The notes under the pieces: generated by a model
What the model was told of the DNA's origin: nothing
What the model saw: only the letters and a program-made list of their open reading frames with translations
Database searches by the model: none
Origin: Minisyncoccota bacterium
Lineage (GTDB): Bacteria > Patescibacteriota > Minisyncoccia > Phycocordibacterales > VMEP01
Assembly (NCBI GenBank): GCA_041661305.1
Contig: JBAZUR010000001.1
Location: forward strand, 99,833 to 163,832
DNA: 64,000 nucleotides
Direction: 5' to 3'
In this document: positions 8,333-43,998 of the stretch, piece after piece
Layout: each line of letters starts with the position of its first letter
Position numbering within the stretch: the stretch's first letter is position 1
Made by a program: the position numbers and the translations under genes

Positions 8333-8409
8333 GTTAAATTCTCACCTCTTTTAATTTTTGCAATATTGTTGTAGCTTGTCGGTAGGCACAATTTATCTGG
8401 AGGGTTCCC

Positions 8410-8883
8410 ATGAATAATAGTACGGCTTTTCGTTTTCCGATTGGGCTTGCTTACACGCTTTCGGTCGCCGTTGTTGAGGCGATACAGCACAAGCGTAGCT
8501 TTGTCGGCAAGAACGACCTCAAACGACTTCTTGAGTGGTACCAGAACGCAGCGTACCCCTGGAACGCCGCTTTGTTTTCGCGGGAAGGCACAACCGACGA
8601 AGGGCAGGCGCTCTATATTTTGATGAGGCATGTTCACTCGAAAAACGCAGTGAACGGTGTTCGTCAAAGGGTATCGCTCGTAGCTCGGGTTGCCGAGTTC
8701 ATGAGCAGATTTCCGAGGAAAACTTACTCGCATCACGACTTCCACTTCGTACTCGATTTCTTCAACGATTTGTCCATCGAAATAATGAAGTACAGGCGTG
8801 ATGTCGGACGGAGAAAGAGAAGGGCTCGGGCGGGGATGAAAATTGCGCACATCAAAAACAGGATGGCGCACGCGCGGATTTAG
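8410..8883 (+). CDS. Hypothetical basic protein in GC-rich foreign cassette A (157 aa)
   Basis: GGAGGG Shine-Dalgarno 5 nt before ATG; Arg/Lys-rich C-terminus; followed by terminator; GC far above flanks; ORFs open in several frames, so a structured RNA cannot be excluded. Confidence 0.4.
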   Translation: MNNSTAFRFPIGLAYTLSVAVVEAIQHKRSFVGKNDLKRLLEWYQNAAYPWNAALFSREGTTDEGQALYILMRHVHSKNAVNGVRQRVSLVARVAEFMSRFPRKTYSHHDFHFVLDFFNDLSIEIMKYRRDVGRRKRRARAGMKIAHIKNRMAHARI

Positions 8884-8895
8884 TCCGCAGATTAC

Positions 8896-8923
8896 AAAGG
8901 GGCGCTTCGGCGCCCCTTTTTTG
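8896..8923 (+). terminator. Rho-independent terminator GGGGCGCTTCGGCGCCCC + T6
   Basis: Perfect GC-rich hairpin followed by TTTTTTG. Confidence 0.8.
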
Positions 8924-8963
8924 TATCCGACAGAAAAAAACAACTTATGCTAATATCGGGCAA

Positions 8964-9929
8964 ATGAAAGGATTTTGGGGAAAGTTGAATAAGCCATTTT
9001 TTGTTTTGGCACCAATGGCCGATGTCACCGACGCGGCTTTTCGTCGTATCATCGCAAAGTATGGCAAACCAGATGTTTTTTGGACAGAGTTTGTTTCCGC
9101 TGATGGTTTGTGTAATCCAAAAGGGCGAGAGAAGCTTTTGATTGATTTGTCATACACAGAAGCGGAACGTCCGATTATTGCGCAAATTTTTTCTTCTAAA
9201 CCAGACAATGTTCGCGAAGCCGCAAAACTAATTAAAGAATTGGGCTTTGATGGACTCGACATAAACATGGGTTGTCCAGATAGGACGATAGAAAAACAAG
9301 GCGCGGGTGCTTCGCTTATGAAGAATCCAAAACTCGCGCAAGAAATTATCCTCGCCGCGAAAGAAGGCGCAGGGGATATGCCAGTATCTGTCAAAACACG
9401 CCTTGGGTATAACAAAGATATTCTAGAAGAATGGCTCCCGGCTCTACTTGAGACTAAACCAGTCGCGATAACCGTGCATGCTCGCAACAGAAAAGAACTG
9501 TCGGATTTTCCAGCACGATGGGAAATGGTTGCGCGGGCGGTGGAGATTCGCAACGAACTAAAGAGCGATACTTTAATTCTTGGTAATGGCGACGTTAGAG
9601 ATATTGCCGATGCGAAAAGAAAAGTAGAAGAAACTAGCGTTGATGGGGTGATGCTTGGACGAGCGATTTTTGGCAATCCATTTCTTTTTGGTAGCGACAA
9701 GAGAGAAGTATCAATAAAAGAGAGATTGGAAATAATGGTTGAACATACGAAACTTTTTGAGGAATTATTTAAAAACGAGAAAAATTTTGCCGTGATGAAA
9801 AAGCACTACAAAGCGTATGTTCACGGATTTGATGGAGCAAAAGAGCTCCGAGTTGAGTTGATGGAAACAAAAACAGCCAAAGAAGTTGAGGAACTTGTGA
9901 AGAAGTTTCTAGGTGGTAGGGGTGCGTAG
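8964..9929 (+). CDS. dus: tRNA-dihydrouridine synthase (Dus family)
   Basis: FVLAPMADVTDAAFRRI, TIM-barrel FMN motifs, catalytic Cys in GCPD; 321 aa. Confidence 0.85.
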   Translation: MKGFWGKLNKPFFVLAPMADVTDAAFRRIIAKYGKPDVFWTEFVSADGLCNPKGREKLLIDLSYTEAERPIIAQIFSSKPDNVREAAKLIKELGFDGLDINMGCPDRTIEKQGAGASLMKNPKLAQEIILAAKEGAGDMPVSVKTRLGYNKDILEEWLPALLETKPVAITVHARNRKELSDFPARWEMVARAVEIRNELKSDTLILGNGDVRDIADAKRKVEETSVDGVMLGRAIFGNPFLFGSDKREVSIKERLEIMVEHTKLFEELFKNEKNFAVMKKHYKAYVHGFDGAKELRVELMETKTAKEVEELVKKFLGGRGA

Positions 9930-10004
9930 AAACGTTGTAATAAATTTTTGAAGGAATAGAATTAAAGGAGCAGTACAAAACGTATAAAAAGAAAGGAGAG
10001 ACGT

Positions 10005-10427
10005 ATGAGCACGTCACTTGATGTAAAGTTCTTTGCAAAACTCGAGTGTCGTTTAGTGAAACCAGCTTGCTGTGTGGCTGTCGCTACAGTCATCAAGTCA
10101 CAGTATGGTATCCACGACGACGTGGATGTTGTCTTGTGTCGCTTCAGGCGGAGAGAAGTGGCCAAATCATCTTTTCAAGAAGTGTTTGAGGTAATCCGCT
10201 TTTTACCGGAGGATAAAGAGCTAGCTCTCAAATTTTTTCCGCACGGACCACCATTTTTGAATAGTGGTCCAGCATGGAGAGAAACAACCGGATGGCTTGC
10301 CCATGTAGTGAATTCGGACAGACCAATTCGAGAACTTGAATTTGTGCGGATTGAAGAGTATCCCCAAAGGACTCTACCACCGCATTTTAGGGCGAGAGTT
10401 TTCTACAACGCTCCTGCCTTGCGTTGA
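10005..10427 (+). CDS. Hypothetical protein, GC-rich cassette B (140 aa)
   Basis: AGGAGA SD 5 nt upstream; TTGTAA-N16-TAGAAT promoter-like element upstream; no family recognised. Confidence 0.45.
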   Translation: MSTSLDVKFFAKLECRLVKPACCVAVATVIKSQYGIHDDVDVVLCRFRRREVAKSSFQEVFEVIRFLPEDKELALKFFPHGPPFLNSGPAWRETTGWLAHVVNSDRPIRELEFVRIEEYPQRTLPPHFRARVFYNAPALR

Positions 10428-10430
10428 GGC

Positions 10431-10484
10431 CCCAATTTTGTTTGTCGATCTAATCGGCTGACGGAGTTGGGGCTTTTGTTTACA
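10431..10484 (+). terminator. Hairpin GCCCCAA...TTGGGGC followed by TTTTGTTT
   Basis: 7 bp GC-rich stem with long loop and U-run after cassette B. Confidence 0.4.
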
Positions 10485-10547
10485 GTTTTGATATCTTGTG
10501 GTAGCATTTTCCCGGGAATGTTCCCGTAAAACACAAGAAGGATAGTG

Positions 10548-11039
10548 ATGCAAAATCGCACAATAGTAACGGTGTCATCGACGCTGGTTTTCGATCTCGA
10601 GAAGAAGATCGAGGCGTATCTGAAGTCGCACGAGTGGCGTCGCCTGATTCACCCGCAGTTGGGTGATGATTTCCTTGTCACTCTCTGGAGCGAAGGAAAT
10701 GTCCTCGGTGGCCTCGGCAAAGACGGCTTCGTCGAAATCGAGCGCAACAAGATTCCGGGGAAAAAGAACATCACCCGGGCTGTCTCGACCAGGAAGGCGG
10801 TGGAAAACTGTCTGAATGGAACCATTCGCGTTCGCGCTCTCGAAACGCACGAGCTTGTCGAAGTGGTCCAGGGCTGGGCTCTGCTGTCGATTCCCGATGC
10901 GGTGAAGGCGAAGGTCATCAACCACCGCACTGGCGAAGCCAACAACAAGGCGAAGCAGTTGAAGTTGCGTTTCCAGGGCAAGTCCGGCATGGTGCCAGGG
11001 CACGCTTCGATGGAAATCACGGGCCAATCGGCAAGTTGA
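10548..11039 (+). CDS. Hypothetical protein, GC-rich cassette C (about 163 aa)
   Basis: AAGGA SD; GC about 57%; no family recognised. Confidence 0.45.
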   Translation: MQNRTIVTVSSTLVFDLEKKIEAYLKSHEWRRLIHPQLGDDFLVTLWSEGNVLGGLGKDGFVEIERNKIPGKKNITRAVSTRKAVENCLNGTIRVRALETHELVEVVQGWALLSIPDAVKAKVINHRTGEANNKAKQLKLRFQGKSGMVPGHASMEITGQSAS

Positions 11040-11143
11040 TCGGCACCTGTAGACGGCCAATCGGCCTAGTTCAACGGCTTGCGCACAGAAACGTTTTTAG
11101 TTAGTATGTGCCCTGCCGTTCAACCAGAAGAGGAGAAGCACCG

Positions 11144-11338
11144 ATGCATCAACAAGGTTCAGGTTCATCACGCAGTTTTGCAGCCCGACGCGCGAATTAC
11201 TTTGCGGGACAGGGCACGCAAGCACAGCCGATGTCGGGGGGAACAGGGGTCGCCGCAAATGATCCCAAGGCCACTTCCGCCGAAGAAGAAATCGTCGTCG
11301 ACCCGAAAGAGTCGCCGGCAAAGCACCAAAAGCAGTAA
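11144..11338 (+). CDS. Hypothetical small low-complexity protein, GC-rich cassette D (about 64 aa)
   Basis: GAGGAG SD 8 nt upstream of internal ATG; G/S/A/Q-rich, predicted disordered. Confidence 0.35.
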   Translation: MHQQGSGSSRSFAARRANYFAGQGTQAQPMSGGTGVAANDPKATSAEEEIVVDPKESPAKHQKQ

Positions 11339-11437
11339 GTCGGCCACGGCCGATTAACAGGTCCGCAAATCGTCAATCGACGGGGAGCGGGCCTTTTTCA
11401 TTTGGCGAGCTGAACTGATATAATCATTTTTACGAGA

Positions 11438-13398: not shown

Positions 13399-13502
13399 AG
13401 GGTAATTTTTGGTTCGTCGTTTAAGTTTGAGATAATTTTCGACTTTGAAGGGTGGGGATAGTGTTTCGCATTCTGTTATATGGCAATTTGGAATAATACA
13501 CA

Positions 13503-13748
13503 ATGGAATATTATGATGTGTATATGCCAAGAGCAATTTATACAAAAGACCATAACGAAATTGTTGAACGCTTGAAAAAGGCGCGACTTAAGGCTGGTTT
13601 TGGGCAGGTTGAGGTTGCAGAAAAACTTGGTAAAACTCAGTCTTATGTTTCTAAGATAGAATCGGGACAAAGACGTTTTGATGTTTTGCAGTTGAAAGAA
13701 TTTGCAAAAATATACAAGAAAAAAATCGATTATTTTATTTCTGACTAA
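13503..13748 (+). CDS. XRE-family HTH controller (C) protein of the R-M module
   Basis: 81 aa with HTH AGFGQVEVAEKLGKTQSYVSKIESGQR; ends 3 nt before the putative restriction endonuclease gene. Confidence 0.7.
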   Translation: MEYYDVYMPRAIYTKDHNEIVERLKKARLKAGFGQVEVAEKLGKTQSYVSKIESGQRRFDVLQLKEFAKIYKKKIDYFISD

Positions 13749-13750
13749 AT

Positions 13751-14785
13751 ATGAAACTAGAACCAAAAAATGTAGTGGAGAGTTTACATAAAATTATGTG
13801 CTCTTCTACGAGCACCCAAGCTGACGCGAGAGTTGATAATAATGATTACTTTAAGAGACGCGTGCTTGGTTTTAAGGCAGAAATTGAATTTGAGAAACTT
13901 ATTGAAAACTATCAAAACATCCAATTTCTTGAGGGAGGACAACTTATATCAAAAGCTCTTTCTGGATCAGCTAGTGATTCAAATAAATTTATATACACTA
14001 CACTTTCTTATGATAAACCAGAGAAATACTTAGAAGTATATAAAGCTGTTTCAAATTGGTCAGATGTTGGCGAAATGTTTTATTTGGAAACAAATGACAA
14101 GTGGACTTATGGTGAACTTCAAGTTAAAGATACATCTACATCTCCAAAAAGAGCAGAAAAGATACTCAAACCTAGTTGTATTTTTTGGATCTATAATAAA
14201 AGTAAGGCAATTTTCGAAAAGCATATTGAGCAAGATTACGGCTGTGTTCTTAGCGGTTTTGAAAATTCAGGTAGAGAACCTTCCGTCTTTCCTTTGAGGA
14301 AACGTGAACAGTTTGATTATTTTTTGGAATATAACATCGATATACTTAAAAAAATATATGCTACAAGATATTTCCTCGATGTAGTATTAAGGAAAGCAAG
14401 TAAAAGAAAAATTATAGATTTTGATGGATTCCTAAAATACAAGCAAGGGCTATCACTCATCGAGATAAAAGAAAAAACACCAATTGTTGGTGAACGGGAT
14501 CCAGCCGATCAAATGCAGTGGAAATATGGCTGGGACTCGAGAAGAATTTTATGGTATCTATATTTTTCGAGTAAGATTAATATGCCAATTATTTATAATG
14601 TTCGACATATTAACAACAGGACTGAAAGAAAATTTATTCAGTGGGATTCTATAACCATTGATACTTTTCTTTCTGGATCTGATTGGTCAAAAGGTAGAGG
14701 AGGCGGAGGTGGGGAGGATACTATGCTTGCCCCATATCTTTTCTTTGAAAGAGTAGAAAAAACACTTGAAAAACTTAATCGGTAA
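13751..14785 (+). CDS. Putative Type II restriction endonuclease (PD-(D/E)XK-like)
   Basis: Position between C protein and convergent MTase; candidate catalytic motif FD...IEIKEK (D-X12-E-X-K); 344 aa. Confidence 0.5.
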   Translation: MKLEPKNVVESLHKIMCSSTSTQADARVDNNDYFKRRVLGFKAEIEFEKLIENYQNIQFLEGGQLISKALSGSASDSNKFIYTTLSYDKPEKYLEVYKAVSNWSDVGEMFYLETNDKWTYGELQVKDTSTSPKRAEKILKPSCIFWIYNKSKAIFEKHIEQDYGCVLSGFENSGREPSVFPLRKREQFDYFLEYNIDILKKIYATRYFLDVVLRKASKRKIIDFDGFLKYKQGLSLIEIKEKTPIVGERDPADQMQWKYGWDSRRILWYLYFSSKINMPIIYNVRHINNRTERKFIQWDSITIDTFLSGSDWSKGRGGGGGEDTMLAPYLFFERVEKTLEKLNR

Positions 14786-16433
14786 ATGCTAAGTTTTTAT
14801 TTTTAGCTAACACTTTACTGACACTAGCTCTTTTTATTTTCTCAATATCTATTCTACCTAATTTATTAGAAGATTTCTCCTCCAATTGATTCAGAGATTT
14901 TAAGACTTCTTTTGCTAATGCTGTAATTACAGGCACAGCAACACTATTCCCAAATTGTTTATATGCTTGCGCATCGCTGACCGGTATCTTGAATGAATCA
15001 GGAAACCCTTGTAATCGTGCAGCCTCTCTAGGAGTGAGTTTTCGAGGATTTTTACTTTTTTGCTCAATGAGAATTTCTGAACCATCTTTATAATATCGTG
15101 CAGATATAGTACTTGTGTATTCTGAATTTTCATTAAACATAGAATATCCGAAACCGTTTCCTTTTTCCCTATGTTCTTTTTTTCTCCTTTGGTGCCCCGC
15201 CCACAACTTGTCGGATATCGTATATTTAGGATCAACCTTTTTTTCAAGAATATTTCCAAGGCGAGTTTTTATGCCCGAAGGTTCAGGAAAAGAAAAATTA
15301 GTTTTTCCTAAAAATCCTATTATATATATACGTTCTCTGTTTTGGGGAACACCAAAGTCTTTTGCATTGAGAACTTTTGAATAGACTTCGTAACCAAGTT
15401 GCTCAAGGATATTATTTATTGTTTCAAAAGTTCTTCCATTATCATGACTCTTAAATCGTTTAACATTTTCTAGAAAAACTACTCTAGGTCTGTGGTATTC
15501 AAGAATTTTAGCGATATCAAAAAATAACGTACCTCTTGTATCTGCAAGACCAAGTTTTTTCCCAGCTTGAGAAAATGGCTGACAAGGGAAGCCAGCAAGT
15601 AATATGTCAAAAGGTGAGATTTCTTCTGGTTTAAACTTGGTAATATCTCCAAACGGAATTTCGGCAAAATTTGCACGATAAGTTTTTTGCGCTGGTTCAT
15701 CCCACTCCGAACTGAAAACTGATTTCGCCCCTATACTTTCAAAGCCTGTTCTTATACCACCTATTCCTGCAAATAGATCTATGACTCTAAGTAATTTTTG
15801 TTGAGAATAATTTTGTTCTTTTTCCGTTTTTTCATTAATGTTTCTTACTATTTGGACAACTACACCTCGGACCTCAACTTCTTTTCTATAAAAAGGGAGC
15901 ATATTTTGATTTCTCGGCTCAAGGCGGAATCCTTTTTTTTCACGATAAAGTTTTTTTAACGTGGCTTGGTTTTCATCAATTATGGCTACAACAGTTTGGC
16001 CATCTTCTGCTACGTCTTGCTTTCTTATGACCACGATGTCTCCCTCAAAAATTCCATCATCCATCATACTGTTTCCAATGACACGGAGAGCATAGTAATC
16101 TTTGGAATTCTTAATATTGGGGTTTACTATCGATATAGTGTCCTGCCTATCTTCTATGGCTTCAATTGGCTGACCGGCGGCAATGGTTCCTAAAATAGGA
16201 ATTTCAAAAATATATTTTATATCTTTTTTGGGTGAAATATTTCTAGATAAATTTTCAGATTTTGAGAGGTAGCCTTTTTCTTTTAAATAGTGAATATGTT
16301 CATGTATTGTGGATATCGCTTTAAGCTTTAGCTTTTTCCTTATTTCTTCAAGGGTTGGCGATATGCCATTTTCAGCGATGTATGTATTTATAAAATCGAA
16401 GACCTGTTTTTGTTTTTTTGTTAGGTTTGCCAT
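14775..16433 (-). CDS. Fusion protein: full-length LexA repressor (HTH + S24 peptidase) joined to a C5-cytosine DNA methyltransferase
   Basis: N-terminus aligns to LexA throughout (LTKKQKQVFDFI; GTIAAGQP Ala-Gly site; GNSM Ser; TLKKL Lys). C-terminus has m5C MTase motifs I FAGIGG, IV GFPCQPFS, VI ENV, VIII QNRERIYIIG, X GNSVAVPV. Single 552 aa ORF. Confidence 0.85.
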   Translation of the reverse strand: MANLTKKQKQVFDFINTYIAENGISPTLEEIRKKLKLKAISTIHEHIHYLKEKGYLSKSENLSRNISPKKDIKYIFEIPILGTIAAGQPIEAIEDRQDTISIVNPNIKNSKDYYALRVIGNSMMDDGIFEGDIVVIRKQDVAEDGQTVVAIIDENQATLKKLYREKKGFRLEPRNQNMLPFYRKEVEVRGVVVQIVRNINEKTEKEQNYSQQKLLRVIDLFAGIGGIRTGFESIGAKSVFSSEWDEPAQKTYRANFAEIPFGDITKFKPEEISPFDILLAGFPCQPFSQAGKKLGLADTRGTLFFDIAKILEYHRPRVVFLENVKRFKSHDNGRTFETINNILEQLGYEVYSKVLNAKDFGVPQNRERIYIIGFLGKTNFSFPEPSGIKTRLGNILEKKVDPKYTISDKLWAGHQRRKKEHREKGNGFGYSMFNENSEYTSTISARYYKDGSEILIEQKSKNPRKLTPREAARLQGFPDSFKIPVSDAQAYKQFGNSVAVPVITALAKEVLKSLNQLEEKSSNKLGRIDIEKIKRASVSKVLAKNKNLAFTD

Positions 16434-16514
16434 ATTGCTAAAAAAATTTATTTGCGATACAGTTTATATTATAACCGAAAATAAACCGAAACATAAGGGC
16501 GACTTATCCACAAG

Positions 16515-17414
16515 ATGAAAAAAGGGAGAAATGAAAAATGTCCATGCGGAAGTGGTTTGAAATATAAGAAATGTCATATGAACAAATCCCGAGAGATTGG
16601 AGTATTACGCAAAGCATACGACATGGGTAAAGACCATGATTTTTATACTCGTTTTTTATTTGGTCTTGGCAACATCAGAAGTTGTGCATACGGAAGAGAT
16701 AAGCAACTTGAGTATGATAAAAGTTTTAGTCCGGTTTTCCAAAATCTAGTTGAAATGAATATTGTAAAAAAGAAATGCGTCGCACTTATTTCTCAACATC
16801 GTGAGGCGGTTGAAACAGGCAAAGATGGGAAATACCATGGTAACCAAATTGACGTAAACGAACCTATTGAGGATGAACTAAATATTTTCTTTAAGGACTT
16901 TTTCATTCGTGGTGAAATGGCAATAGGAAGTCTTATTGCACACTCGCGATACGTGGGATCAAATATCGGGTTTCTTTTTACGGACGACGAAAAGAAATTT
17001 CGCAAGGGATTGGCAAAATTTGTGTTAAACGAGAACGATGAGCGTTTTAAGGGGTTAAATGCGTTCATGAAGCATAATCGAACAACATGGTACGAATCTT
17101 TCAATGACCTTCGCAATAAAATTGAACACGAAGGGTGGCATTTGCCGAATTTGCAGTACACACTTGATTCAAATAATAAAGTGCAGGTTCGGTTACCGAC
17201 ATCCCCCAGTCAAACTATTGAAGAAATTTTGGAGTCATATTGGCAAAGCATGAGTATGTTTTGTGAGGAAGTCATCGTTTTTCTTTTGAGCCTTAAGTTG
17301 AAAGAAGACATGATTATTGTATTTATTCCAGAAGAAAAACGAGATAAAAATTTACCTGTTCGATATATTGTCAGTCATAAAGATTTTCCTGGTGTTTTGT
17401 TGCAGTGCGGGTAA
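16515..17414 (+). CDS. SEC-C motif (CPCGSG..KCH zinc-binding) domain protein, function unknown
   Basis: N-terminal CPCGSGLKYKKCH; 299 aa. Confidence 0.5.
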   Translation: MKKGRNEKCPCGSGLKYKKCHMNKSREIGVLRKAYDMGKDHDFYTRFLFGLGNIRSCAYGRDKQLEYDKSFSPVFQNLVEMNIVKKKCVALISQHREAVETGKDGKYHGNQIDVNEPIEDELNIFFKDFFIRGEMAIGSLIAHSRYVGSNIGFLFTDDEKKFRKGLAKFVLNENDERFKGLNAFMKHNRTTWYESFNDLRNKIEHEGWHLPNLQYTLDSNNKVQVRLPTSPSQTIEEILESYWQSMSMFCEEVIVFLLSLKLKEDMIIVFIPEEKRDKNLPVRYIVSHKDFPGVLLQCG

Positions 17415-17425
17415 AGGGAGCATCC

Positions 17426-17462
17426 CCGCCGTCTCCTATTTTTTCCCACGGCGGGGATATTG
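17426..17462 (+). terminator. Hairpin ATCCCCGCCGT...ACGGCGGGGAT after the SEC-C gene
   Basis: 11 bp perfect stem. Confidence 0.5.
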
Positions 17463-17494
17463 CGCGCGAACGAGGGGTGAGATGAATGGCATTT

Positions 17495-17551
17495 TCAAAA
17501 TGATATAATACGAAAATGGAAAAAGTACCTTATACAAACTTAACCGTATTT
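17495..17551 (+). repeat. Direct repeat copy 1 (about 57 bp): extended -10 TGATATAAT plus truncated 16-codon ORF MEKVPYTNLTVFVLEH
   Basis: About 86% identical to 19656-19712. Confidence 0.8.
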
Positions 17552-17600
17552 GTTCTTGAGCACTAACCATTAGATGAGCTCTTAGAATATATTACTTAAC

Positions 17601-19100
17601 ATGTCTTTCAAGTTATCAAAAACCAATTTTCTAATATGTCTTGATTGTGCAAAAAACGCATGGCTTAAGATTCATAAACCAGACATATACAAGAAAAAAT
17701 CTCCTTCTTCTTTTGAGTTAAACATCATTGATACTGGTAATCAAATTGACGAGCTTGCTCGTGATCTTTTCCCAAACGGAACACTTGTTGATTCTCGTGA
17801 GGATACGGAACTTACAAAAAAACTCATGGCCGATAAAATACCTGTAATTTATCAGCCAGTATTTGCTACAGAAAAATTTATTATCGCCTCCGATATTTTT
17901 GTTTGGAATGCGGATACAAATCTATATGATCTGTATGAAGTAAAATCTTCAACTTCTTCAGAAGAAGAGGGTGGAAGAAAAACTGAAGATTATTTGATTG
18001 ATATGGCTTTTCAAAAAAATATTCTAAATGACTTAGGTATTCAGATTGGCACTCTTAATTTAATTCGACTCAACAAAACATATGTTCGAATGGGAAATAT
18101 TGAGTTAAAAGAACTATTTTTTATTGAAAATTTTACTGATCAAGTAAACGAAAAACTTGAGGATATAAAACAAAAAATGGATGGTGCTTACGAGCTACTA
18201 TCTAAAGAAAAAGAACCGCAAGGGCACTGTGATTGTATTTTGAAAGGGAAAAATTCGCACTGCACGACTTCGTGGTATTCAAACTCTGATCTTCCCGAGT
18301 ACTCTGTTCATTCAATCGCTCGAATTCACAAGAAAAAACTAATTGAATTAGTTGATAGTAATATATTTAGTATTCATGATGTTCCAGACGGTTTTGAGTT
18401 GTCAGATAATCAACGAAGACAGGTAAATACCGCACAGTCGGGTAGGGAGTATATTGATAAGAATGGAATCTCAGAGTTTTTGGAGACTATGAAATATCCT
18501 CTTGCTTTTCTTGATTACGAAACATATCCTTCTGCAATCCCAAAATATAATGGATACAGACCATATCAACAAATTCCATTCCAATTTTCACTTCATGTTA
18601 TTGACTCGCCAACCAGTGAATCTGTTCACTATGATTTTATTTATACAGATCAAGAGTGCCCAGATACATACTTTTCTGAAGCATTAAAAAAGCATCTTCC
18701 AAAAATAGGAAGTATTGTTGTGTGGAGCCAAAGATTTGAAAAAGGTATCAATGAACAAATTGGTGAACGTTTGCCTGACTATAAAAATTTTATGCAGGAA
18801 GTGAATAATCGTGTAGTTGACCTGATGATTCCTTTCTTTGGCAAGACAACAATGTATGACCACCCAAAATTCAAAGGTAGTGCTTCAATAAAATATGTTT
18901 TGCCTGCTCTTGTTCCCACTCTGTCTTATAAAGATATGCACATTCAAGAAGGAGGTACGGCAGCCGACACATGGAATCGTATTGTGTCTGGAGAATATTC
19001 TGAAAATGACAAAAATATGAAAATACAAGCACTCAAGGATTATTGTCATCTCGATACTTTGGCGATGGTTGAAATTTGGAGAGTCTTAAAATCAGTTTAG
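17601..19100 (+). CDS. PD-(D/E)XK (Cas4/RecB-like) nuclease domain fused to a DUF2779 RNase H-like domain
   Basis: N-terminus CLDC and D..LYEVK motif; C-terminus LAFLDYETY...PYQQIPFQFSLH typical of DUF2779; 499 aa. Confidence 0.55.
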   Translation: MSFKLSKTNFLICLDCAKNAWLKIHKPDIYKKKSPSSFELNIIDTGNQIDELARDLFPNGTLVDSREDTELTKKLMADKIPVIYQPVFATEKFIIASDIFVWNADTNLYDLYEVKSSTSSEEEGGRKTEDYLIDMAFQKNILNDLGIQIGTLNLIRLNKTYVRMGNIELKELFFIENFTDQVNEKLEDIKQKMDGAYELLSKEKEPQGHCDCILKGKNSHCTTSWYSNSDLPEYSVHSIARIHKKKLIELVDSNIFSIHDVPDGFELSDNQRRQVNTAQSGREYIDKNGISEFLETMKYPLAFLDYETYPSAIPKYNGYRPYQQIPFQFSLHVIDSPTSESVHYDFIYTDQECPDTYFSEALKKHLPKIGSIVVWSQRFEKGINEQIGERLPDYKNFMQEVNNRVVDLMIPFFGKTTMYDHPKFKGSASIKYVLPALVPTLSYKDMHIQEGGTAADTWNRIVSGEYSENDKNMKIQALKDYCHLDTLAMVEIWRVLKSV

Positions 19101-19621
19101 AAAAGGGGGCAAATGATATTTTTAAAATGGTAGACTTTACGAAACCGAAGCATTCAGCAATTCATATGCCACGAAAAACAATAAAAAATGCCGGCGACCA
19201 AGATTTTAAGCCGGACTTAACTCCGAAGGAAATGCTTGAGCTCGGTGTATTTGGCGGATTATATTTTTCTGATAAACCTAAAGAGTTTCCAAGGAGTTGG
19301 TTTGTGAAAGCAAAATTGTCGCCTGATGGAAAACGCCACAAAGAACTGAACTTTTTCGGCATAAATGCGAGCCAACCGCTTTCTGTGTGGAAAACTAAAG
19401 GGTGGATTCATCCACAAGATCCGCGTGGATGGTTTCAGTGGTACTGCAGATATTACATTGGGCGTCGGACTGTTGATGATGAGCGACAAATAAAAAGGTG
19501 GAGAGCCATACGCAGGCACATTGTGCAAATTAAAAACAATTGCCGAACCGGAGATATTTTTTGCCGACCTCGGCAAAGACAAGCATTGCTTCACTGGGCT
19601 TACGACTCGCGGAAAATGTAA
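19076..19621 (+). CDS. Hypothetical basic protein (true start possibly ATG at 19127)
   Basis: 181 aa ORF overlapping the end of the nuclease gene; Trp/Arg-rich C-terminus. Confidence 0.4.
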   Translation: MESLKISLEKGANDIFKMVDFTKPKHSAIHMPRKTIKNAGDQDFKPDLTPKEMLELGVFGGLYFSDKPKEFPRSWFVKAKLSPDGKRHKELNFFGINASQPLSVWKTKGWIHPQDPRGWFQWYCRYYIGRRTVDDERQIKRWRAIRRHIVQIKNNCRTGDIFCRPRQRQALLHWAYDSRKM

Positions 19622-19655
19622 TAAAGATTCTCCCGAGATAGATTTTTTGCGGGCA

Positions 19656-19712
19656 CCAAAATGATATAATACAAAAATGGAAAAGGTACCATACACAAAT
19701 TTAGCCATCTTT
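19656..19712 (+). repeat. Direct repeat copy 2: TGATATAAT promoter plus start of an intact small membrane-protein gene
   Basis: Matches 17495-17551. Confidence 0.8.
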
Positions 19713-19829
19713 GCCCTTTTCTTTGGTGTTGCTCTTCTAGAAGCAATTCAAAGAAGTAATTGGATTGAAGCAGGCCTTTTTCTCGCCCTAGGTCTTTTAT
19801 TCCTCCGCGCAGATTTTTTAAAGAAATAA
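19677..19829 (+). CDS. Small hydrophobic membrane protein (50 aa), intact copy of the ORF truncated at 17516
   Basis: MEKVPYTNLAIFALFFGVALL...; stop overlaps next start (TAATG). Confidence 0.5.
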   Translation: MEKVPYTNLAIFALFFGVALLEAIQRSNWIEAGLFLALGLLFLRADFLKK

Positions 19830-20425
19830 TGAATATGAAAAATTTTTATACAATCATCCCAATTTTAATCGCTTTGTCTGTCGGGGTTTATTTCTCGCTT
19901 ACAGTTGATGAAAAGAAAGTGACAAATAATAACAACACGTATCCAAATTATTCAAACGAAGTGCTTGGTATCGAATTTGCCTATCGCGCAGGACCAGACG
20001 GATATGTGATACAAGAACACTTTGTATCGAAGTCAGCTGAAGATTTGCTTGGCACGATTGTACTCATGAGGACTGAAGACGCCGAGAGACCAATGCCTGT
20101 CGGTGGTGAGGGTCCAGCAACTATCACTATTCAAGTGCTTAAGAATTCAAAGAAACAACAGTCAGAGGCGTGGGCAAATGCGAATAACATATACAGCAAT
20201 ATCAATCTTAAAACAGGCGAGGTGAGTGAGTATGTTCTCGGTGGAGCAAACGCAATTAGATATTCTGCTACTGGTCTTTATGAATCAGACAATGTGGTGG
20301 TGGCTCACGGCGAGAACGTATATGTGCTCAGCGGAAACTATATGGACGCTGAATCAGATTTGCGAAAAGATTTTACTCCACTTCTTGAATCAGTCAGATT
20401 CATCCCGCAACCAAGACAAAATTAA
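19829..20425 (+). CDS. Hypothetical membrane-anchored protein
   Basis: N-terminal TM; 198 aa. Confidence 0.5.
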   Translation: MNMKNFYTIIPILIALSVGVYFSLTVDEKKVTNNNNTYPNYSNEVLGIEFAYRAGPDGYVIQEHFVSKSAEDLLGTIVLMRTEDAERPMPVGGEGPATITIQVLKNSKKQQSEAWANANNIYSNINLKTGEVSEYVLGGANAIRYSATGLYESDNVVVAHGENVYVLSGNYMDAESDLRKDFTPLLESVRFIPQPRQN

Positions 20426-20585
20426 GGATGAAAAGACAATGTGCAAAAAATGCACACTGTGAATCGAAGGCAAAACATATGGTGGCGTTAGTAACACAGA
20501 TGCTGAAGTAGTTGTTATAAAGAGACGAGAGGGGCTTGTGGAACGAGCCGTTAATATTTTAATCACAACTTGATATAATCTTTTT

Positions 20586-20903
20586 ATGAAAAAACCATTC
20601 CTATACGCATTCTCCGCCGCACTATATATTGTTTCTCTTATTTCCGTTATATATCTTGCCTCTCGTTTTTTGAAAGATGTGCCTGAAACTATAATTATTC
20701 CGATGACTATGCTGAGTATTTTTGTTTTGTCAGCTGCGGTTATGGGGTTCTTGTTTTTATCTGAGCCGTTATCTCTACTAGTTGAAGGCAAGAAGAGAGA
20801 AGCTATTATCTACTTTGCTAAGATTGTCGGATTTTTTGCTTGTTTCGTGATTATTTTTGCAACGATTCTTATCACCGGCCAAACTTTTCTCCCGTCATTT
20901 TAG
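20586..20903 (+). CDS. Small integral membrane protein
   Basis: Three predicted TM helices; GATATAAT -10 upstream. Confidence 0.5.
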   Translation: MKKPFLYAFSAALYIVSLISVIYLASRFLKDVPETIIIPMTMLSIFVLSAAVMGFLFLSEPLSLLVEGKKREAIIYFAKIVGFFACFVIIFATILITGQTFLPSF

Positions 20904-28803: not shown

Positions 28804-28831
28804 TTGACACCTATTTTAAGTCGTGTAATAT
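28804..28831 (+). promoter_or_regulatory. Near-consensus sigma-70 promoter TTGACA-N16-TAATAT driving cassette E
   Basis: TTGACA at 28804-28809, TAATAT at 28826-28831. Confidence 0.6.
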
Positions 28832-28943
28832 AGCCCAATCGACCTTTTTGGGGTCGATTTCATTTGTCCCACGTGGTTCAAGTGGATGCTCTTTAAAACC
28901 GTTTCTCGTTCAAAAACCCATAAATCTTTTGGAGATTCATCCC

Positions 28944-29279
28944 ATGACTCAGCAATTCAACCAATCGAAACGCAAAGGCCCCTTTGTTCCCAGCAAGATT
29001 TCCGTCATCCTCGCTGGAACGAACATCGTCGGCATGATCGACCGCTCGGCTCTGGCCAAGGACGGCTGGAAGAAGCATTCGGGGAAGGCCCCCGTCGCCG
29101 GCGTGGAAGTGCATTCGCTGGAAAGCCAGAAGATCGACGGTACCGATTCGATCGCGATCAAGGGCAAGGGCGGCTTCATGACGGCAACGAATGGCGAACT
29201 CGAGTGCTTCTGCGCCGACCACCTGACCGGCCTCGGCTACGAAATCATGCCGCCGGGTGGCACCAAGGCCTCGACCTGA
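28944..29279 (+). CDS. Hypothetical protein, GC-rich cassette E (111 aa)
   Basis: GGAGA SD 9 nt upstream of ATG; GC about 58%; no family recognised. Confidence 0.45.
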   Translation: MTQQFNQSKRKGPFVPSKISVILAGTNIVGMIDRSALAKDGWKKHSGKAPVAGVEVHSLESQKIDGTDSIAIKGKGGFMTATNGELECFCADHLTGLGYEIMPPGGTKAST

Positions 29280-29299
29280 ACGACAACGGCAACAACAAC

Positions 29300-29356
29300 C
29301 GCCGATAGTAATATCGGCACCATACAAGGGCGTCTCCTCCGGGAGCGCCTTTTTTC
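29300..29356 (+). terminator. Two hairpins (GCCGATA..TATCGGC, then GGCGTCTCC..GGAGCGCC + T6) after cassette E
   Basis: Second hairpin followed by TTTTTTC. Confidence 0.65.
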
Positions 29357-29421
29357 TTTTCAATATATAATGAGTTGACAGGTTTTTGGATTACAAACTT
29401 ATTTTTAAATAAACAAAATAT

Positions 29422-30384: not shown

Positions 30385-30501
30385 GCCATATTTGATGGTT
30401 GGTTTGACATACGTTGTTTTTATTGTAGGGTGTAGGGGGTAGTTTTAACGTCGCGTCACTTTATTGTGTCGCTCGATGCACCTTACACGAGGAGGCGAAA
30501 G

Positions 30502-31047
30502 ATGAAGAAGAATAGAAGCGAAATTCTTGCGGGTGCCCGCGAGGCCTTCTTCTATGCGATGTTGCATGGTTGGGTGGCGGGCGGGGACCACAAGAAAGTG
30601 GTCAGAGTTCCTGGAAGTTTTGACAGCAAGGAGGTCTCTTATAGCGCCGGGCTTTTGTACAAAAGGAAGTGGTTTCTTGTTGTTGATCGCTACTGCGTTT
30701 CGGGCGCGGGAAAGTCTGCTGGCACAACAACAATTTGGCTCAGTCACGACCCGGTTTGGTTCATGAGCTACGGCGGTGCTTATCTGAAGGAGGACATCCC
30801 TTTCCTAAAGAATGCCCTTACTCGCGTTTATTCTGAGAAGCAGTTTTTCGGAGGACGTGGGCCGACGAGCCTTGCTATCCCGGCACATCACGTCAACGGT
30901 GGTGTTCTGGTTTACGCGAATGAAGTTGAGAAGGATAGCACCTTCGAAAAATTTCGCGGAAAAGAAGCAATCATCGGCCCATCGAAGGACGGCGGTTCTC
31001 CAGAATTTCGTGGTCACCACGATTACTGGGGGATGTCGCTGATTTGA
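30502..31047 (+). CDS. Hypothetical protein, GC-rich cassette F (181 aa)
   Basis: GAGGAGG SD 6 nt upstream of ATG; TTGACA at 30404; GC about 55%; no family recognised. Confidence 0.45.
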   Translation: MKKNRSEILAGAREAFFYAMLHGWVAGGDHKKVVRVPGSFDSKEVSYSAGLLYKRKWFLVVDRYCVSGAGKSAGTTTIWLSHDPVWFMSYGGAYLKEDIPFLKNALTRVYSEKQFFGGRGPTSLAIPAHHVNGGVLVYANEVEKDSTFEKFRGKEAIIGPSKDGGSPEFRGHHDYWGMSLI

Positions 31048-31083
31048 TGGCGCTATCGTACCTTAGTTTTGTTTTACTCAATT

Positions 31084-31113
31084 GCGTCCCGATAACCTCG
31101 GGACGCTTTTTTT
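31084..31113 (+). terminator. Intrinsic terminator GCGTCCCGA-loop-TCGGGACGC + T7
   Basis: Perfect 9 bp stem followed by TTTTTTT. Confidence 0.8.
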
Positions 31114-31550: not shown

Positions 31551-32057
31551 ATGACAATGATAATGATTGCGATAGTTTTTACGGCTTTAGTGGTCGCTAT
31601 TGTAATTGCGGTTGAAACATTTACAACAGTTGAATCTTCGGACAAAAATGGGAAACCCGTTTTTAATTACGGTCGCAAAGATTTTTTGATGACTCGGGCT
31701 GAGCACGCTTTTTTCGATGTTTTAATTGAGGTTATAGGTGGTCAATATCACGTATTTCCTCAAGTGCATTTGGATGAAATAATTTACCCAAAACCATATT
31801 CTGGGAAAAGAATTTTCCCATTTCGACACGTCAATCAAAAATCAGTTGATTTCGTAATTTGCGATAAGGCAGACATAAAACCACTTCTTGCCATTGAGCT
31901 AGATGATAGAACTCATGAGCTAGAGAATAGAAAGAAAAGAGACGAAGAAGTTGAGAGGATTTTAAGCGGGGCAGGATTTCCTCTTTTGCGAATTAGTAAC
32001 GGTGGTCATTTTGATAAAGAAGAAATAAAAAGACTTGTTTTAGAAAAATTAAGATAA
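31551..32057 (+). CDS. DUF2726 domain protein (restriction-endonuclease-like fold), N-terminal TM
   Basis: FFDVL...VDFVICD...LAIELDDRTHE pattern. Confidence 0.5.
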   Translation: MTMIMIAIVFTALVVAIVIAVETFTTVESSDKNGKPVFNYGRKDFLMTRAEHAFFDVLIEVIGGQYHVFPQVHLDEIIYPKPYSGKRIFPFRHVNQKSVDFVICDKADIKPLLAIELDDRTHELENRKKRDEEVERILSGAGFPLLRISNGGHFDKEEIKRLVLEKLR

Positions 32058-38365: not shown

Positions 38366-38728
38366 ATGAGCGAAAAACTTTCCGGTGGATTTGAACAAAA
38401 AAGCGATCTTGAAGAGGCGGCATACGACGCCCGATTAAGAAGAGATGTTGTTTTGCCGAAAGAGGGAACTGGAGCTTATGAGTCTTTGGAAAAAACTTGT
38501 AAGGCTTACTCAAGCGCGGTTGCCCAAGAGATGATTGCACATAGCCCAAAATTTTTTGAGACAAGTGGAAAAACAAGAAGAGCTCTGCACGCAGAGCTCT
38601 GTATAAAACTGTATGGGACGTCCTGGCAGGAAACCTCCCGAGACGATACTGATGCTGCTAGACGTTTTGCGCACTATGTTGCAGGGCGCCCGTCATTTGC
38701 CGAGGATGATTTTGGTGGAAGCCACTAG
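38366..38728 (+). CDS. Hypothetical protein (120 aa)
   Basis: ORF with TAAAAATAAAAAT -10-like upstream; no family recognised. Confidence 0.4.
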   Translation: MSEKLSGGFEQKSDLEEAAYDARLRRDVVLPKEGTGAYESLEKTCKAYSSAVAQEMIAHSPKFFETSGKTRRALHAELCIKLYGTSWQETSRDDTDAARRFAHYVAGRPSFAEDDFGGSH

Positions 38729-38967
38729 CACTCCACCTTTTCGCCGACGTACTGGAACTTCTTGCCCTCGACCGTGACAACGGTCTTGAAAGTGCCGTCG
38801 CCCTGATCAGCGTTGAGCTGGCAGGTATCGTAATTGGCTGAGCACAAGAGGAAACGCAGTTCTTCAAGCTCAATCCAGTAGCTTTTCTTGCTACCGCTCT
38901 CGTTGATACGATTGCGGAGCTTTTCAAGCAGTTTTGCCAACTTTTTCTTGTCACCCGTCGTCGCCAT
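38725..38967 (-). CDS. Hypothetical small protein, GC-rich cassette I (80 aa), convergent with preceding gene
   Basis: GAGGAGG SD 7 nt upstream on minus strand; TTGACA (39033-39038, minus) promoter-like element. Confidence 0.4.
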   Translation of the reverse strand: MATTGDKKKLAKLLEKLRNRINESGSKKSYWIELEELRFLLCSANYDTCQLNADQGDGTFKTVVTVEGKKFQYVGEKVEC

Positions 38968-39098
38968 TTTTTGCCTCCTCAAAAAGATCACGATAAATAA
39001 CCTTATGAAGGATATAACACATATCAATGATTGTCAATATGGTTGAAGTTCGCGGGCCTTTAGTGGAAAAGCCTATTTAATTAAGATAAAATTAACAA

Positions 39099-40396: not shown

Positions 40397-40400
40397 AAAC

Positions 40401-41695: not shown

Positions 41696-41726
41696 GTAGG
41701 ATAATTTTTTATGATAAAATATTTCC

Positions 41727-42128: not shown

Positions 42129-42148
42129 TTATCATTACCATTAATAGC

Positions 42149-42577: not shown

Positions 42578-42627
42578 CCAAACATAAACCAAAAGAAATG
42601 ATGTAGATACGGTGTTTTGAGGTGCCC

Positions 42628-42655
42628 TTGACAAAAAGTTAATTATAGGTATCAT
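42628..42655 (+). promoter_or_regulatory. Consensus-like promoter TTGACA-N16-TATCAT for cassette G
   Basis: TTGACAAAAAGT shared with cassette H promoter. Confidence 0.55.
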
Positions 42656-42717
42656 TTGGTATGGAATGTCTCGGGGGTCCCCGAAACAACGTAGTATCAT
42701 TAAAAGAGGAGAAGTCC

Positions 42718-43128
42718 ATGAAAAAGCTTCTGAGTGTTTTGTTTGCCTCGCTTTTCGCCCTCGTTTTCTTCGCGCCGTCGGCCTTCGCTGACCCCGGGAA
42801 GGGGAAGACGATGCTCGCCAACGCCAATGAAAGCAACGAGCCCGGGCAGGTCATCGCCGACGCGATGTGGGTGGCCGGCGGGGAAGACTATCAGGTCGCC
42901 GTCATCATTCTCGCCAAGAAGTACAACTCGAAGATGGACAAGAACTGCCGCGTCAAGAACTTCGACGTCGGGCTGGCGTCCCAGAACTACCGCTTCGTTC
43001 CGTCCGTCAACAAGGCCGTGCGTGACAAGATGATCCTGAAGCAAGTGGCCACGATGGGTTGCGAGATGAGCCCGTACATCCACAAGGAAGCCAAGACCGC
43101 CGCCATCCAGAAGATCTGGCGCATGTAA
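42718..43128 (+). CDS. Secreted hypothetical protein, GC-rich cassette G (136 aa, signal peptide)
   Basis: AGGAGA SD; signal peptide MKKLLSVLFASLFALVFFAPSAFA/DP; GC about 58%. Confidence 0.5.
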   Translation: MKKLLSVLFASLFALVFFAPSAFADPGKGKTMLANANESNEPGQVIADAMWVAGGEDYQVAVIILAKKYNSKMDKNCRVKNFDVGLASQNYRFVPSVNKAVRDKMILKQVATMGCEMSPYIHKEAKTAAIQKIWRM

Positions 43129-43157
43129 CCGACCGGCGTCGCCAGCAAGAAGAAACA

Positions 43158-43197
43158 GGGGGAGCACGAAAGTGTCTCCCCCTATTTTATTTTTTTT
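43158..43197 (+). terminator. Intrinsic terminator GGGGGAG-loop-CTCCCCC + TATTTTATTTTTTTT
   Basis: Strong hairpin plus long U-run. Confidence 0.8.
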
Positions 43198-43247
43198 AAG
43201 GAGCAATATTTGGTCAGGTGGTAGTTAGTATTTATTTTTATGTTACC

Positions 43248-43280
43248 ATTGACAAAAAGTGTAATTTATGAATTAATTAC
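43248..43280 (+). promoter_or_regulatory. Promoter-like element TTGACAAAAAGT... for cassette H
   Basis: Same -35 + A-tract as at 42628. Confidence 0.45.
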
Positions 43281-43340
43281 AATAGATTTGTGTTTTAACA
43301 AACTTGTTTTTTGAGTAAAATGATTTTTTAGGAGGGTGCC

Positions 43341-43943
43341 ATGAAAAAGCTATTTTTCTGTTTTCTTCTCACTTCTTTCTGTTCGGTTGTTTCTGCTGTC
43401 GAGATGAGGCCATTTCTCTTGGAGAATTACGGCTGGACCATCGACCTTGGCAACAAAGAAAAGAGCTTCTTCGGTTTTTCTTGGAACATTAACTGTCCCA
43501 AAAACGGCCAGATTTTTCCCAAGGAAGGAGTTAACGTCTTTCGTTTTCCGGTATGTGTTCAGAAAGATCGAACTTTTTGGACCGTTATTCTCTGGAGGAC
43601 AAACATGGTGGCACCGGAAGCAATCGAGAAGACGGTGTATAACGCCATGTCTGATGGGCTTGGTTACGGAAAGATTCTTTGTCGCGAGGAACTCGTGTCG
43701 TCTTTTATCAACGAGAGAGGGGTTGTGCGCGACTGTGCAGTCCCACTTCAGCACGGAACGTTCTATGTCTCCTTCTATCATTTCGATATTCTGATGCCGG
43801 CCGGTGGTTCGTTTGTCGACCAGAACGGGGAAAAGGAAAAAACTCTCGGCTTCACCATCTGGGTCCAAAATGCCGGAAACATCGACAGTGGCGTGAAGGA
43901 TAAGTTACGGGAGTTGATCTCGGCCATCAAGGGGAAGGAGTGA
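43341..43943 (+). CDS. Secreted hypothetical protein, cassette H (200 aa, signal peptide)
   Basis: AGGAGG SD 7 nt upstream; signal peptide MKKLFFCFLLTSFCSVVSA; GC about 47%. Confidence 0.5.
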   Translation: MKKLFFCFLLTSFCSVVSAVEMRPFLLENYGWTIDLGNKEKSFFGFSWNINCPKNGQIFPKEGVNVFRFPVCVQKDRTFWTVILWRTNMVAPEAIEKTVYNAMSDGLGYGKILCREELVSSFINERGVVRDCAVPLQHGTFYVSFYHFDILMPAGGSFVDQNGEKEKTLGFTIWVQNAGNIDSGVKDKLRELISAIKGKE

Positions 43944-43963
43944 AGATGTTCTGTTGTTTCAAT

Positions 43964-43998
43964 GCCACCACAGGGAAACCTAGGTGGCATTTTGTTTT
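43964..43998 (+). terminator. Intrinsic terminator GCCACC-loop-GGTGGC + ATTTTGTTTTATTT
   Basis: Hairpin plus U-run. Confidence 0.7.

Follow-up and report, generated by a model that had tools for sequence, protein, structure and literature searches.

Nine short genes rich in guanine plus cytosine (GC) are set among the conserved chromosomal genes of a 64-kb stretch of Minisyncoccota DNA (contig JBAZUR010000001.1, positions 99,833 to 163,832), which we call the window. Each of these cassettes, A to I, appears to carry its own promoter and a Shine–Dalgarno (SD) sequence, and most also a terminator; the surrounding native genes are mostly SD-less. The first-pass annotation of the window took the cassettes to be recent arrivals from a high-GC donor. 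Our analysis points instead, with confidence that we would call evenly balanced, to a long-resident, lineage-restricted and autonomously expressed class of SD-dependent accessory genes, whose GC-rich transcripts would be maintained or replenished. Central to this reading is the comparison with relatives, whose contigs carry L-numbers (L082, L169 and so on) as labels: most of the cassettes are found at the same sites, with their composition kept, in relatives so diverged that native silent sites are saturated.

Composition and expression signals

Peaks in the GC profile of the window coincide exactly with the cassettes. Their coding GC is 0.47–0.60 (A 0.51, B 0.47, C 0.56, D 0.57, E 0.60, F 0.52, G 0.58, H 0.47, I 0.51), which confirms the distinct composition first put at about 47–58%. 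GC at third codon positions (GC3) is 0.42–0.86 in the cassettes (A 0.62, B 0.42, C 0.71, D 0.54, E 0.80, F 0.56, G 0.86, H 0.58, I 0.72) against 0.335 ± 0.048 in a native set of 64 genes, whose maximum of 0.446 is surpassed by all cassettes but B. The pooled values of 0.638 and 0.326 differ with a chi-square P of ~1e-108. At the three codon positions the cassettes have GC of 0.54, 0.41 and 0.64 and native genes 0.50, 0.36 and 0.33; the first two are just slightly raised and the shift is thus mostly synonymous. Codons ending in G and in C are both enriched (shares in cassettes and native genes: AAG 0.72 and 0.28, CAG 0.66 and 0.32, ATC 0.60 and 0.15), with amino-acid usage hardly changed, so that in codon usage as in GC the cassettes stand apart. 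Translational selection for C-ending codons was considered and rejected, since the enrichment is just as strong for G-ending codons and csp, a highly expressed gene, shows native GC3. The 5′ untranslated regions (UTRs) of the cassettes have GC of 0.30–0.59 and the 3′UTRs with terminators 0.48–0.67. Since the UTRs are GC-enriched too, the enrichment points to a trait of the transcript or region more than of codon choice alone. Cassette promoters, at 0.17–0.34, compare with 0.34 for native intergenic DNA.

The predicted layout of each cassette is listed below in window coordinates. Promoters are given as -35 hexamer, spacer length in nucleotides and -10 box, and values after SD motifs are duplex energies in kcal/mol to the canonical anti-SD sequence CACCUCCUUU, our measure of SD strength.

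A, 8339..8927, plus strand: weak promoter at ~8339-8377; SD GGAGGG (-9.8); coding sequence 8410-8883, 157 aa, with a basic C-terminal tail; terminator stem 8896-8919, then a T-run.
B, 9935..10481, plus strand: promoter TTGTAA-16-TAGAAT at 9935-9962; SD AAAGGAGAG (-9.0); coding sequence 10005-10427, 140 aa; terminator 10428-10481.
C, 10479..11066, plus strand: promoter TTTACA-17-TGgTAGCAT at 10479-10507; 5′ stem-loop GGGAA/TTCCC; SD AGAAGGA; coding sequence 10548-11039, 163 aa; hairpin 11055-11066 with no T-run.
D, 11079..11404, plus strand: weak promoter ending in TAGTAT at ~11107; SD GAGGAGA (-9.0); coding sequence 11144-11338, 64 aa, low-complexity; terminator 11359-11404.
E, 28804..29363, plus strand: promoter TTGACA-16-TAATAT at 28804-28831; leader of ~105-112 nt opening with hairpin 28837-28859; SD GGAGA (-6.4); coding sequence 28944-29279, 111 aa; terminator 29326-29363.
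F, 30404..31113, plus strand: promoter TTGACA-16-TAGGGT at 30404-30431; leader of ~63-70 nt with a stem-loop; SD GAGGAGG; coding sequence 30502-31047, 181 aa, DUF5680; terminator 31084-31113.
G, 42628..43199, plus strand: promoter TTGACA-16-TATCAT at 42628-42655; 5′ stem-loop at ~42668-42688; SD AGAGGAGAAG (-9.0); coding sequence 42718-43128, 136 aa, with an N-terminal signal peptide ending in AFA; terminator 43157-43199.
H, 43249..44002, plus strand: TTGACA at 43249 with a poor -10 box; SD AGGAGGG (-10.7); coding sequence 43341-43943, 200 aa, with a signal peptide; terminator 43963-44002.
I, 38725..39037, minus strand: promoter TTGACA-17-TATCCT at 39037-39009; SD GAGGAGG (-11.5); coding sequence 38967-38725, 80 aa.

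As first annotated, every cassette has an SD: a purine-rich motif of the GGAGG type lies 5-10 nt before all nine starts, is conserved in orthologues and has a duplex energy of -6.0 to -12.0 kcal/mol, the weaker sites being those of C (AAGGA) and E (GGAGA). The cut-off of -6 kcal/mol is reached by only 5 of the 69 other open reading frames (ORFs) (Fisher P = 1.1e-8). Promoter-like sites, as sequence signals, precede all nine. A TTGACA box had been ascribed to most cassettes; the exact hexamer, with a 16-17 nt spacer and a TAnnnT box, stands ahead of E, F, G, H and I but not of A–D, where C has TTTACA (5/6 positions), B has TTGTAA (4/6) and the -35 boxes of A and D are weak. The 64 kb hold six intergenic TTGACA hexamers, five of which precede cassettes. 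Intrinsic terminators, also claimed for most, are borne out as a GC-rich hairpin and T-run after A, B, D, E, F, G and H (7/9). The 3′ hairpin of C has no T-run, and I, whose stop codon overlaps with the stop of the convergent gene 38366-38728, therefore lacks a terminator.

Predicted leaders, from transcription start to ATG, are ~30–105 nt long in the cassettes. A GC-rich 5′ stem-loop lies a few nucleotides past the predicted start in at least four of them (C 10514-10525, E 28837-28859, F 30453-30471, G 42668-42688). Orthologues keep the stem-loops of C, F and G, with some compensatory pair changes; in F the TTGACA-16-TAGnnT promoter, the leader hairpin and the terminator are kept in three diverged alleles, with two compensatory hairpin pairs. 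These elements may be 5′ mRNA stabilisers or, for E, where TCATTTG follows the hairpin, an attenuator; the long E leader gave no match in Rfam. Although the leader around it has diverged, each orthologue set retains the SD core with its spacing unchanged (A GGAG; B AAAGGAG; C AGAAGGA; D AGAGGAGA; F GGAGG/AGGAG/GGGGG; G AGAGGAGAAG; H AGGAG/GGGAG; I GAGGAG). Conservation of this kind indicates that the cassette expression signals are under selection.

Native genes had been described as SD-less with promoters consisting of a -10 box only. The first part holds for 64 of the 69 ORFs, whose sites are weaker than -6 kcal/mol, and native -35 boxes are indeed poor, the -10 boxes often being TG-extended; a strong -10 box ending 5-14 nt before the start codon, the leaderless type by a strict criterion, is found at 12 of 37 native unit heads. 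Native unit heads thus look mostly leaderless or short-leadered as well as SD-less, and the description of the cassettes as self-contained expression units between SD-less housekeeping genes is supported. An automatic cassette detector (first ATG, SD, TTGAC[AT], terminator) was too strict, recovered F alone in the window and was left unused for counts; an SD scan with free choice of start codon selected spurious internal starts.

We note a tenth SD-led gene at 61857-62210 (plus strand), beyond the range covered by the first-pass annotation. It encodes a 117-aa predicted membrane protein behind a strong SD, CTGGAGGGGG (-10.8 kcal/mol), at native-like GC (0.41). As it is SD-led yet not GC-rich, SD and high GC are not strictly coupled.

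Persistence in relatives and rival origins

Graded relatives were gathered by a contig scan with the HI0933-like protein and by exact-protein look-ups; a contig scan with DnaX gave, among the matches listed, relatives of at most 58% identity, of little use for finding empty sites. For every cassette there is one relative or more with the same site filled; for G and H these are closer relatives only. Synteny extends to L082/L083 for A–D, to L121 for E–I and to L166/L167 for G, H and I. The contigs L121, L166 and L167 come from close strains (native proteins mostly 86–100% identical) that between them have E, F, G, H and I at the same sites. The E protein is identical in L121; H is 93% identical in L121 and 89% in L167, and I is 96% identical in L121 and L166.

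Two more diverged contigs bear on the age of the cassettes. L169, a 136-kb JGI contig, has native proteins of 90% (SerS), 94% (DnaX), 80% (Dus) and 62% (FtsQ-like) identity and carries A (61%), B (59%), C (39–41%) and D (68%) in the order and between the flanking genes seen in the window; the GGAG of A and the AGAGGAGA of D are conserved there, as is the AAAGGAG of B in its L169 and L168 orthologues (59–61% identical). L086, with native proteins at ~80%, has a partial E homologue (49%), F (71–73%) and I (85–86%, GAGGAG kept) at the same sites. Against both contigs, native fourfold-degenerate sites are 40–50% identical and synonymous divergence (dS, NG86) is 1.2–2.5 or not computable, that is, saturated. 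Cassette GC3 in L169 and L086 stays at 0.55–0.71, with the SD conserved (window/relative: C 0.71/0.71, A 0.62/0.59, F 0.56/0.55, I 0.72/0.65, D 0.54/0.65). High GC3 has thus outlasted the saturation of native silent sites, and the composition therefore appears to be maintained or replenished and is no fading trace of recent transfer. Two-state decay to the native GC3 of 0.33, at 0.6 or more substitutions per silent site per lineage, would put the ancestral GC3 of C, F and I above 1. Counts of polarised substitutions are even between GC-to-AT and AT-to-GC for C (16:16), H (13:13), I (3:3) and D (2:2); being low, and obtained by parsimony, which saturated outgroups bias, such counts are suggestive only. 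It appears that A–D, F, I and an E-like gene predate the split of the window lineage from those of L169 and L086.

No empty sites were seen: cassettes occupy their sites in L082, L083, L121, L166, L167, L169 and L086, with turnover of single cassettes only. At 5609-6136 (plus strand) L169 has an extra SD-led cassette of 175 aa, GC 0.50, with a terminator, between dus and the B orthologue. The window has a gap of 75 nt there, which is evidence of cassette gain or loss at the same locus. Two further differences were seen among relatives. The 168-aa, AT-rich, native-type gene at window 31551-32057 (plus strand) is absent from the otherwise near-identical L121, an indel unrelated to the cassettes. 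Adjoining A–D, the region 3′ of dnaX (window 13400-20900, restriction-modification-type genes) differs strongly among the window, L082 and L169, which has SduA_C-domain, Peptidase_S24-domain and other genes instead; it is a variable defence-type island.

The main rival to long residence with maintained composition, which we regard as rather unlikely, is repeated import. The sites would be old and their contents periodically swapped for homologous alleles from an unsampled GC-rich pool (a lineage plasmid or phage, higher-GC Paceibacteria, or the host organism) entering by recombination in the conserved flanks, and GC would be held high without selection. Such swaps would explain why F is only 69–72% identical to its L121 allele (dS 1.2) between flanking genes at 92–100% (dS ~0.17), why C is 89% identical in L082 where most flanking genes are ~98–99%, and why G is 72–80% identical in L166 and L167 where native genes are 86–97%. 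The lower dS of cassettes than of native genes against L169 and L086, the additional cassette between dus and B in L169 and the range of genome GC in Paceibacteria (0.35–0.54) fit the same idea. However, the divergent F tract spans ~30160 to ~31140, starting ~220 nt within the 3′ end of the native gene that precedes F, and native genes are mosaic as well (dS 0–1.5 against L166), so that the tract reads as ordinary recombination. The promoter and N-terminal region of H likewise form a divergent recombination tract relative to L121. Cassette divergence in general looks like homologous recombination between diverged alleles, with no cassette-specific mobility; no flanking repeats, att-like sites or transposon ends were found around the cassettes.

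Nor was the postulated pool found. Donor searches of large protein databases covered C, F and G only. For G there are 5 homologue clusters among 5.8 billion, 72–91% identical, and the two traced to contigs (L166, L167) share its genomic context. An exhaustive HMMER search of 1.84 billion representatives gave 4 matches to C; of the two contigs retrieved, L169 is syntenic and L168 keeps a B-like beside a C-like gene. No G or C member was found outside a syntenic chromosomal context in the 1.84 billion representatives. Scans of IMG/VR with profiles of F and C and with the A, E, G and H proteins showed no relatives, and tblastn found nothing for G, E and F in plasmids or for C and F in phages. Native genes, moreover, are SD-less even in a Paceibacteria locus of GC 0.54.

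The first-pass reading itself, recent horizontal gain from a high-GC, SD-using donor with amelioration still to come, now seems improbable. It accounts for codon usage that has shifted wholesale to G- and C-ending codons, as in a genome of ~55–60% GC, with amino acids nearly unchanged, and for 3′UTRs and a C–D spacer that are GC-rich as well; G in particular has a GC3 of 0.86, is known from close relatives only and shows an excess of GC-to-AT changes. Recency is nonetheless contradicted for A–D, F and I, and probably for E, by the filled sites in relatives across saturated divergence and by GC3 that is alike in both lineages, as well as by the impossible ancestral GC3 that neutral back-calculation would give for C, F and I. 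The high-GC donor has not emerged either: the traced homologues of C and G belong to the same lineage, the named F homologues to the candidate phyla radiation (CPR), and the phage, plasmid and IMG/VR searches came back empty. The promoter regions are AT-rich and native-like. Ancient horizontal transfer is a plausible, if untraceable, ultimate origin.

An assembly artefact, whether chimerism, contamination or artificial insertion, is refuted: its sole attraction is the sharp compositional boundaries, whereas each of the nine proteins is found again in assemblies of other samples (JGI, ENA or Logan), which excludes chimerism. Contigs from ENA (two samples), JGI and Logan share the junctions at 95–100% nucleotide identity, independent ENA and Logan contigs being 100% identical to parts of the window and A–D standing at the same junctions at 95–97% in JGI and ENA contigs of other samples; diverged orthologues occupy the same junctions in five further assemblies. 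The nine proteins and DnaX are listed in the public protein collection as hypothetical proteins under "MAG: Candidatus Paceibacterota bacterium" (WC724_00660 to 00910, on a 476-kb contig).

Structured non-coding RNA genes with the ORFs as mere by-products can be dismissed with equal firmness: GC-rich islands do mark RNA genes in some AT-rich genomes and several islands here have long ORFs on both strands, but GC3 far above GC2, codon periodicity, the substitution pattern, the signal peptides of G and H, the Pfam domain of F and the lack of Rfam matches in the window other than two tRNAs all speak against it. In the proposed frames GC3 exceeds GC2, and substitutions between orthologues are concentrated at third positions. 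The ratio of nonsynonymous to synonymous divergence (dN/dS) is 0.10–0.47 and never above 1 (I 0.11–0.25; G 0.27–0.41, against 0.03–0.13 for native genes in that comparison); most native genes lie at 0.01–0.13. The cassettes are true coding genes, fast-evolving under relaxed purifying selection.

The cassette proteins had been described as without recognisable family, and this stands for eight of the nine. The exception is F, which scores 33.7 bits against a Pfam gathering cut-off of 25 (E = 4.9e-8) for DUF5680 (PF18931). Its 41 homologues, 37 of them precomputed as PF18931, conserve the motifs SAGTTTIW and GxHxYWGMS; those that are named are all CPR, from Paceibacterota or Zambryskibacteria. 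Scans of the nine proteins against PHROGs, PADLOC and NCBIfam gave no significant match, and A matched no family in these or in Pfam. Profiles for anti-phage defence and toxin–antitoxin systems in PADLOC, Pfam and NCBIfam gave nothing significant, although novel systems could escape them. No convincing structural relatives emerged for the AlphaFold2 models of C (pLDDT 76) or F (pLDDT 88). Signal peptides can be read in G (MKKLLSVLFASLFALVFFAPSAFA/D) and H (MKKLFFCFLLTSFCSVVSA/V), and the presence of two predicted secreted members, together with fast evolution, suggests surface or host-interaction roles. Convergent on I, with overlapping stops, is a 120-aa orphan gene at 38366-38728 (plus strand); its GC of 0.47 is the highest among native genes, and its promoter is of the leaderless type. 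Both genes are kept as a pair in L086, L121 and L166 and may form a functional two-gene module.

A separate mode of translation and its occurrence elsewhere

Under the explanation that we favour, each cassette would be a monocistronic unit consisting of a sigma-70-type promoter, usually with a good -35 box, a ~30–105-nt leader, an SD and a small ORF, which the intrinsic terminators present in 7/9 would insulate from neighbouring operons. Cassettes are inherited in synteny and appear to be shuffled by ordinary homologous recombination. Their GC-rich mRNAs, if structured, would be barred from unstructured or leaderless entry and hence depend on SD:anti-SD pairing to recruit the 30S subunit. The 5′ stem-loop, GC-rich body and 3′ hairpin may make for long-lived transcripts. 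What keeps GC high could be selection acting on the RNA, GC-biased gene conversion where loci are prone to recombination, or replenishment from an unsampled pool.

Similar genes are found in other Paceibacteria. Distant DUF5680 homologues (38–45% identical) on contigs L170 (GC 0.43), L171 (0.39) and L173 (0.54) are monocistronic, with SDs of -10.7 to -11.7 kcal/mol, a GC-rich 3′ hairpin with T-run and SD-less, leaderless-type neighbours. Among the three, a TTGACA promoter is plain in L171 only; GC is raised in the L170 gene, though not in that of L171. Hand inspection located the full pattern, that is, a TTGAC[AT] -35 box, a leader, AGGAGG, a coding sequence 0.07–0.17 above locus GC and a terminator, in four contigs:

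L092, 4290-4685.
L097, 573-896, minus strand.
L004, 11527-12237, minus strand.
L170, 12509-12970 and 13011-13235.

One of these genes is alpha/beta-hydrolase-like by eye (GQSAGG motif). In L171 a nucleotide-metabolism operon at 858-3326 (cytidylyltransferase-like, dCMP deaminase, DHFR, thymidylate synthase) has SDs of -7 to -9 kcal/mol in an otherwise SD-less Paceibacteria locus and may be another acquired, SD-retaining block.

Several points weigh against a maintained, SD-dependent class. B and H are only mildly GC-rich, B being the least atypical cassette. A roughly 2:1 excess of GC-to-AT changes in G and F is compatible with slow amelioration, and GC is perhaps decaying in some cassettes. 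The cassette dS of 0.7–1.4, below the native dS against L169 and L086, could reflect inter-lineage exchange at a later date. Promoters, transcription start sites and terminators are predicted from consensus matches only, the link from GC-rich transcripts to a need for an SD is one that we infer, and the generality across Paceibacteria comes down to a handful of hand-checked loci. SD use in the window organism is deduced solely from the conservation of its SDs, and Tsurumaki et al. (PMC9297842) found the CCTCCT anti-SD motif in no more than 48% of the 16S genes of Parcubacteria. The complete 16S gene of a more distant Paceibacteria relative (L115 4531-6097, minus strand) is without CCUCC: its 3′ tail reads GGAATATTTCAAGT where GGATCACCTCCTTA is expected and ends in ...GCTCGTGGAATATTTCAAGT, the L115-like tail being AAUAUUUCAAGU.

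The absence in L115 is in line with the published finding that some Parcubacteria have lost the anti-SD (PMC9297842), and none of the ~27 ORFs of the 20-kb L115 locus has an SD. There is no rRNA in the window (Rfam: two tRNAs only), nor a 16S gene in the adjoining flank examined. Because the SDs are conserved, and by contrast with L115, the window organism probably keeps its anti-SD. That it has lost the motif, like L115 and about half of Parcubacteria, strikes us as distinctly improbable; the SD-like motifs would then have a non-canonical reader, or the genes would be tuned for another cell, such as the host of a presumed episymbiont. We put forward only tentatively the further idea that Paceibacteria keep the anti-SD solely for a second, separately controllable translation channel, serving a GC-rich, fast-evolving accessory set whose composition is actively maintained.

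The CPR accounts for a large part of all bacterial diversity; hardly any of its members have been cultured, and their gene expression is little understood. A full-text literature search found no paper linking Parcubacteria with leaderless genes. In the window, one small genome appears to hold two cleanly separated expression architectures, an SD-less leaderless majority and an SD-led, GC-rich orphan minority. If this proves genome-wide and general across Paceibacteria, it would provide a signature for lineage-specific accessory proteins, secreted ones included, that are the likeliest to act in symbiont–host interaction, and a natural way to probe why the anti-SD was retained in some Parcubacteria and lost in others. 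It would also call into question atypical GC as a clock of recent horizontal transfer, because atypical composition has here outlasted the saturation of native silent sites. Gene callers trained on one model alone would mis-start the other class.

Comparison with known systems

Phage morons, in the concept of Hendrix and Juhala, are extra genes with their own promoter and terminator set between conserved genes. The cassettes resemble them as autonomous promoter–ORF–terminator units wedged among co-directional conserved genes, with a composition unlike that of their flanks, with small proteins of accessory or unknown role and with some gain and loss between relatives. They are self-contained units between genes, as morons are, but not in a phage or prophage: their neighbours are chromosomal (serS, ftsQ-like, dus, dnaX, ABC ATPase, HI0933-like, mscL and sigma factor genes). 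They differ further in having no viral relatives in the PHROGs, IMG/VR and phage searches, in their synteny across saturated silent sites and in their own mode of initiation.

Orphan-gene islets from horizontal transfer, which ameliorate in the model of Lawrence and Ochman, are likewise short, homologue-poor, fast-evolving and intergenic, with atypical GC and codon usage. Acquired genes usually have a higher AT content than the rest of the genome and a patchy distribution in close relatives. The cassettes share the atypical composition but are GC-rich, syntenic in species-level relatives and unconverged on host composition despite saturation, and neither empty sites nor, in the large-database searches with C, F and G, donor homologues accompany them.

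Integron cassettes are small single-gene modules encoding unrelated orphan proteins, which recalls the present set. They are, however, promoterless, carry attC and form an array beside intI, whereas here each cassette has a promoter of its own and the set is spread across 35 kb; the annotated window genes include no integrase, and no direct or inverted repeats shared between cassettes flank them. Transposons and miniature inverted-repeat elements fit no better, given the lack of flanking repeats and of any cassette protein matching a transposase.

A parallel for the mode of translation is rpsU of Flavobacterium johnsoniae, a minority SD-led gene in the SD-'blind' Bacteroidia, which is autoregulated while the anti-SD is sequestered (PMC7797042, PMC13000453). 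In both cases nearly all genes are SD-less and a few keep a strong, conserved SD, which implies a special translational regime. There it concerns one ribosomal-protein gene; here it would serve a group of GC-rich orphan or accessory genes.

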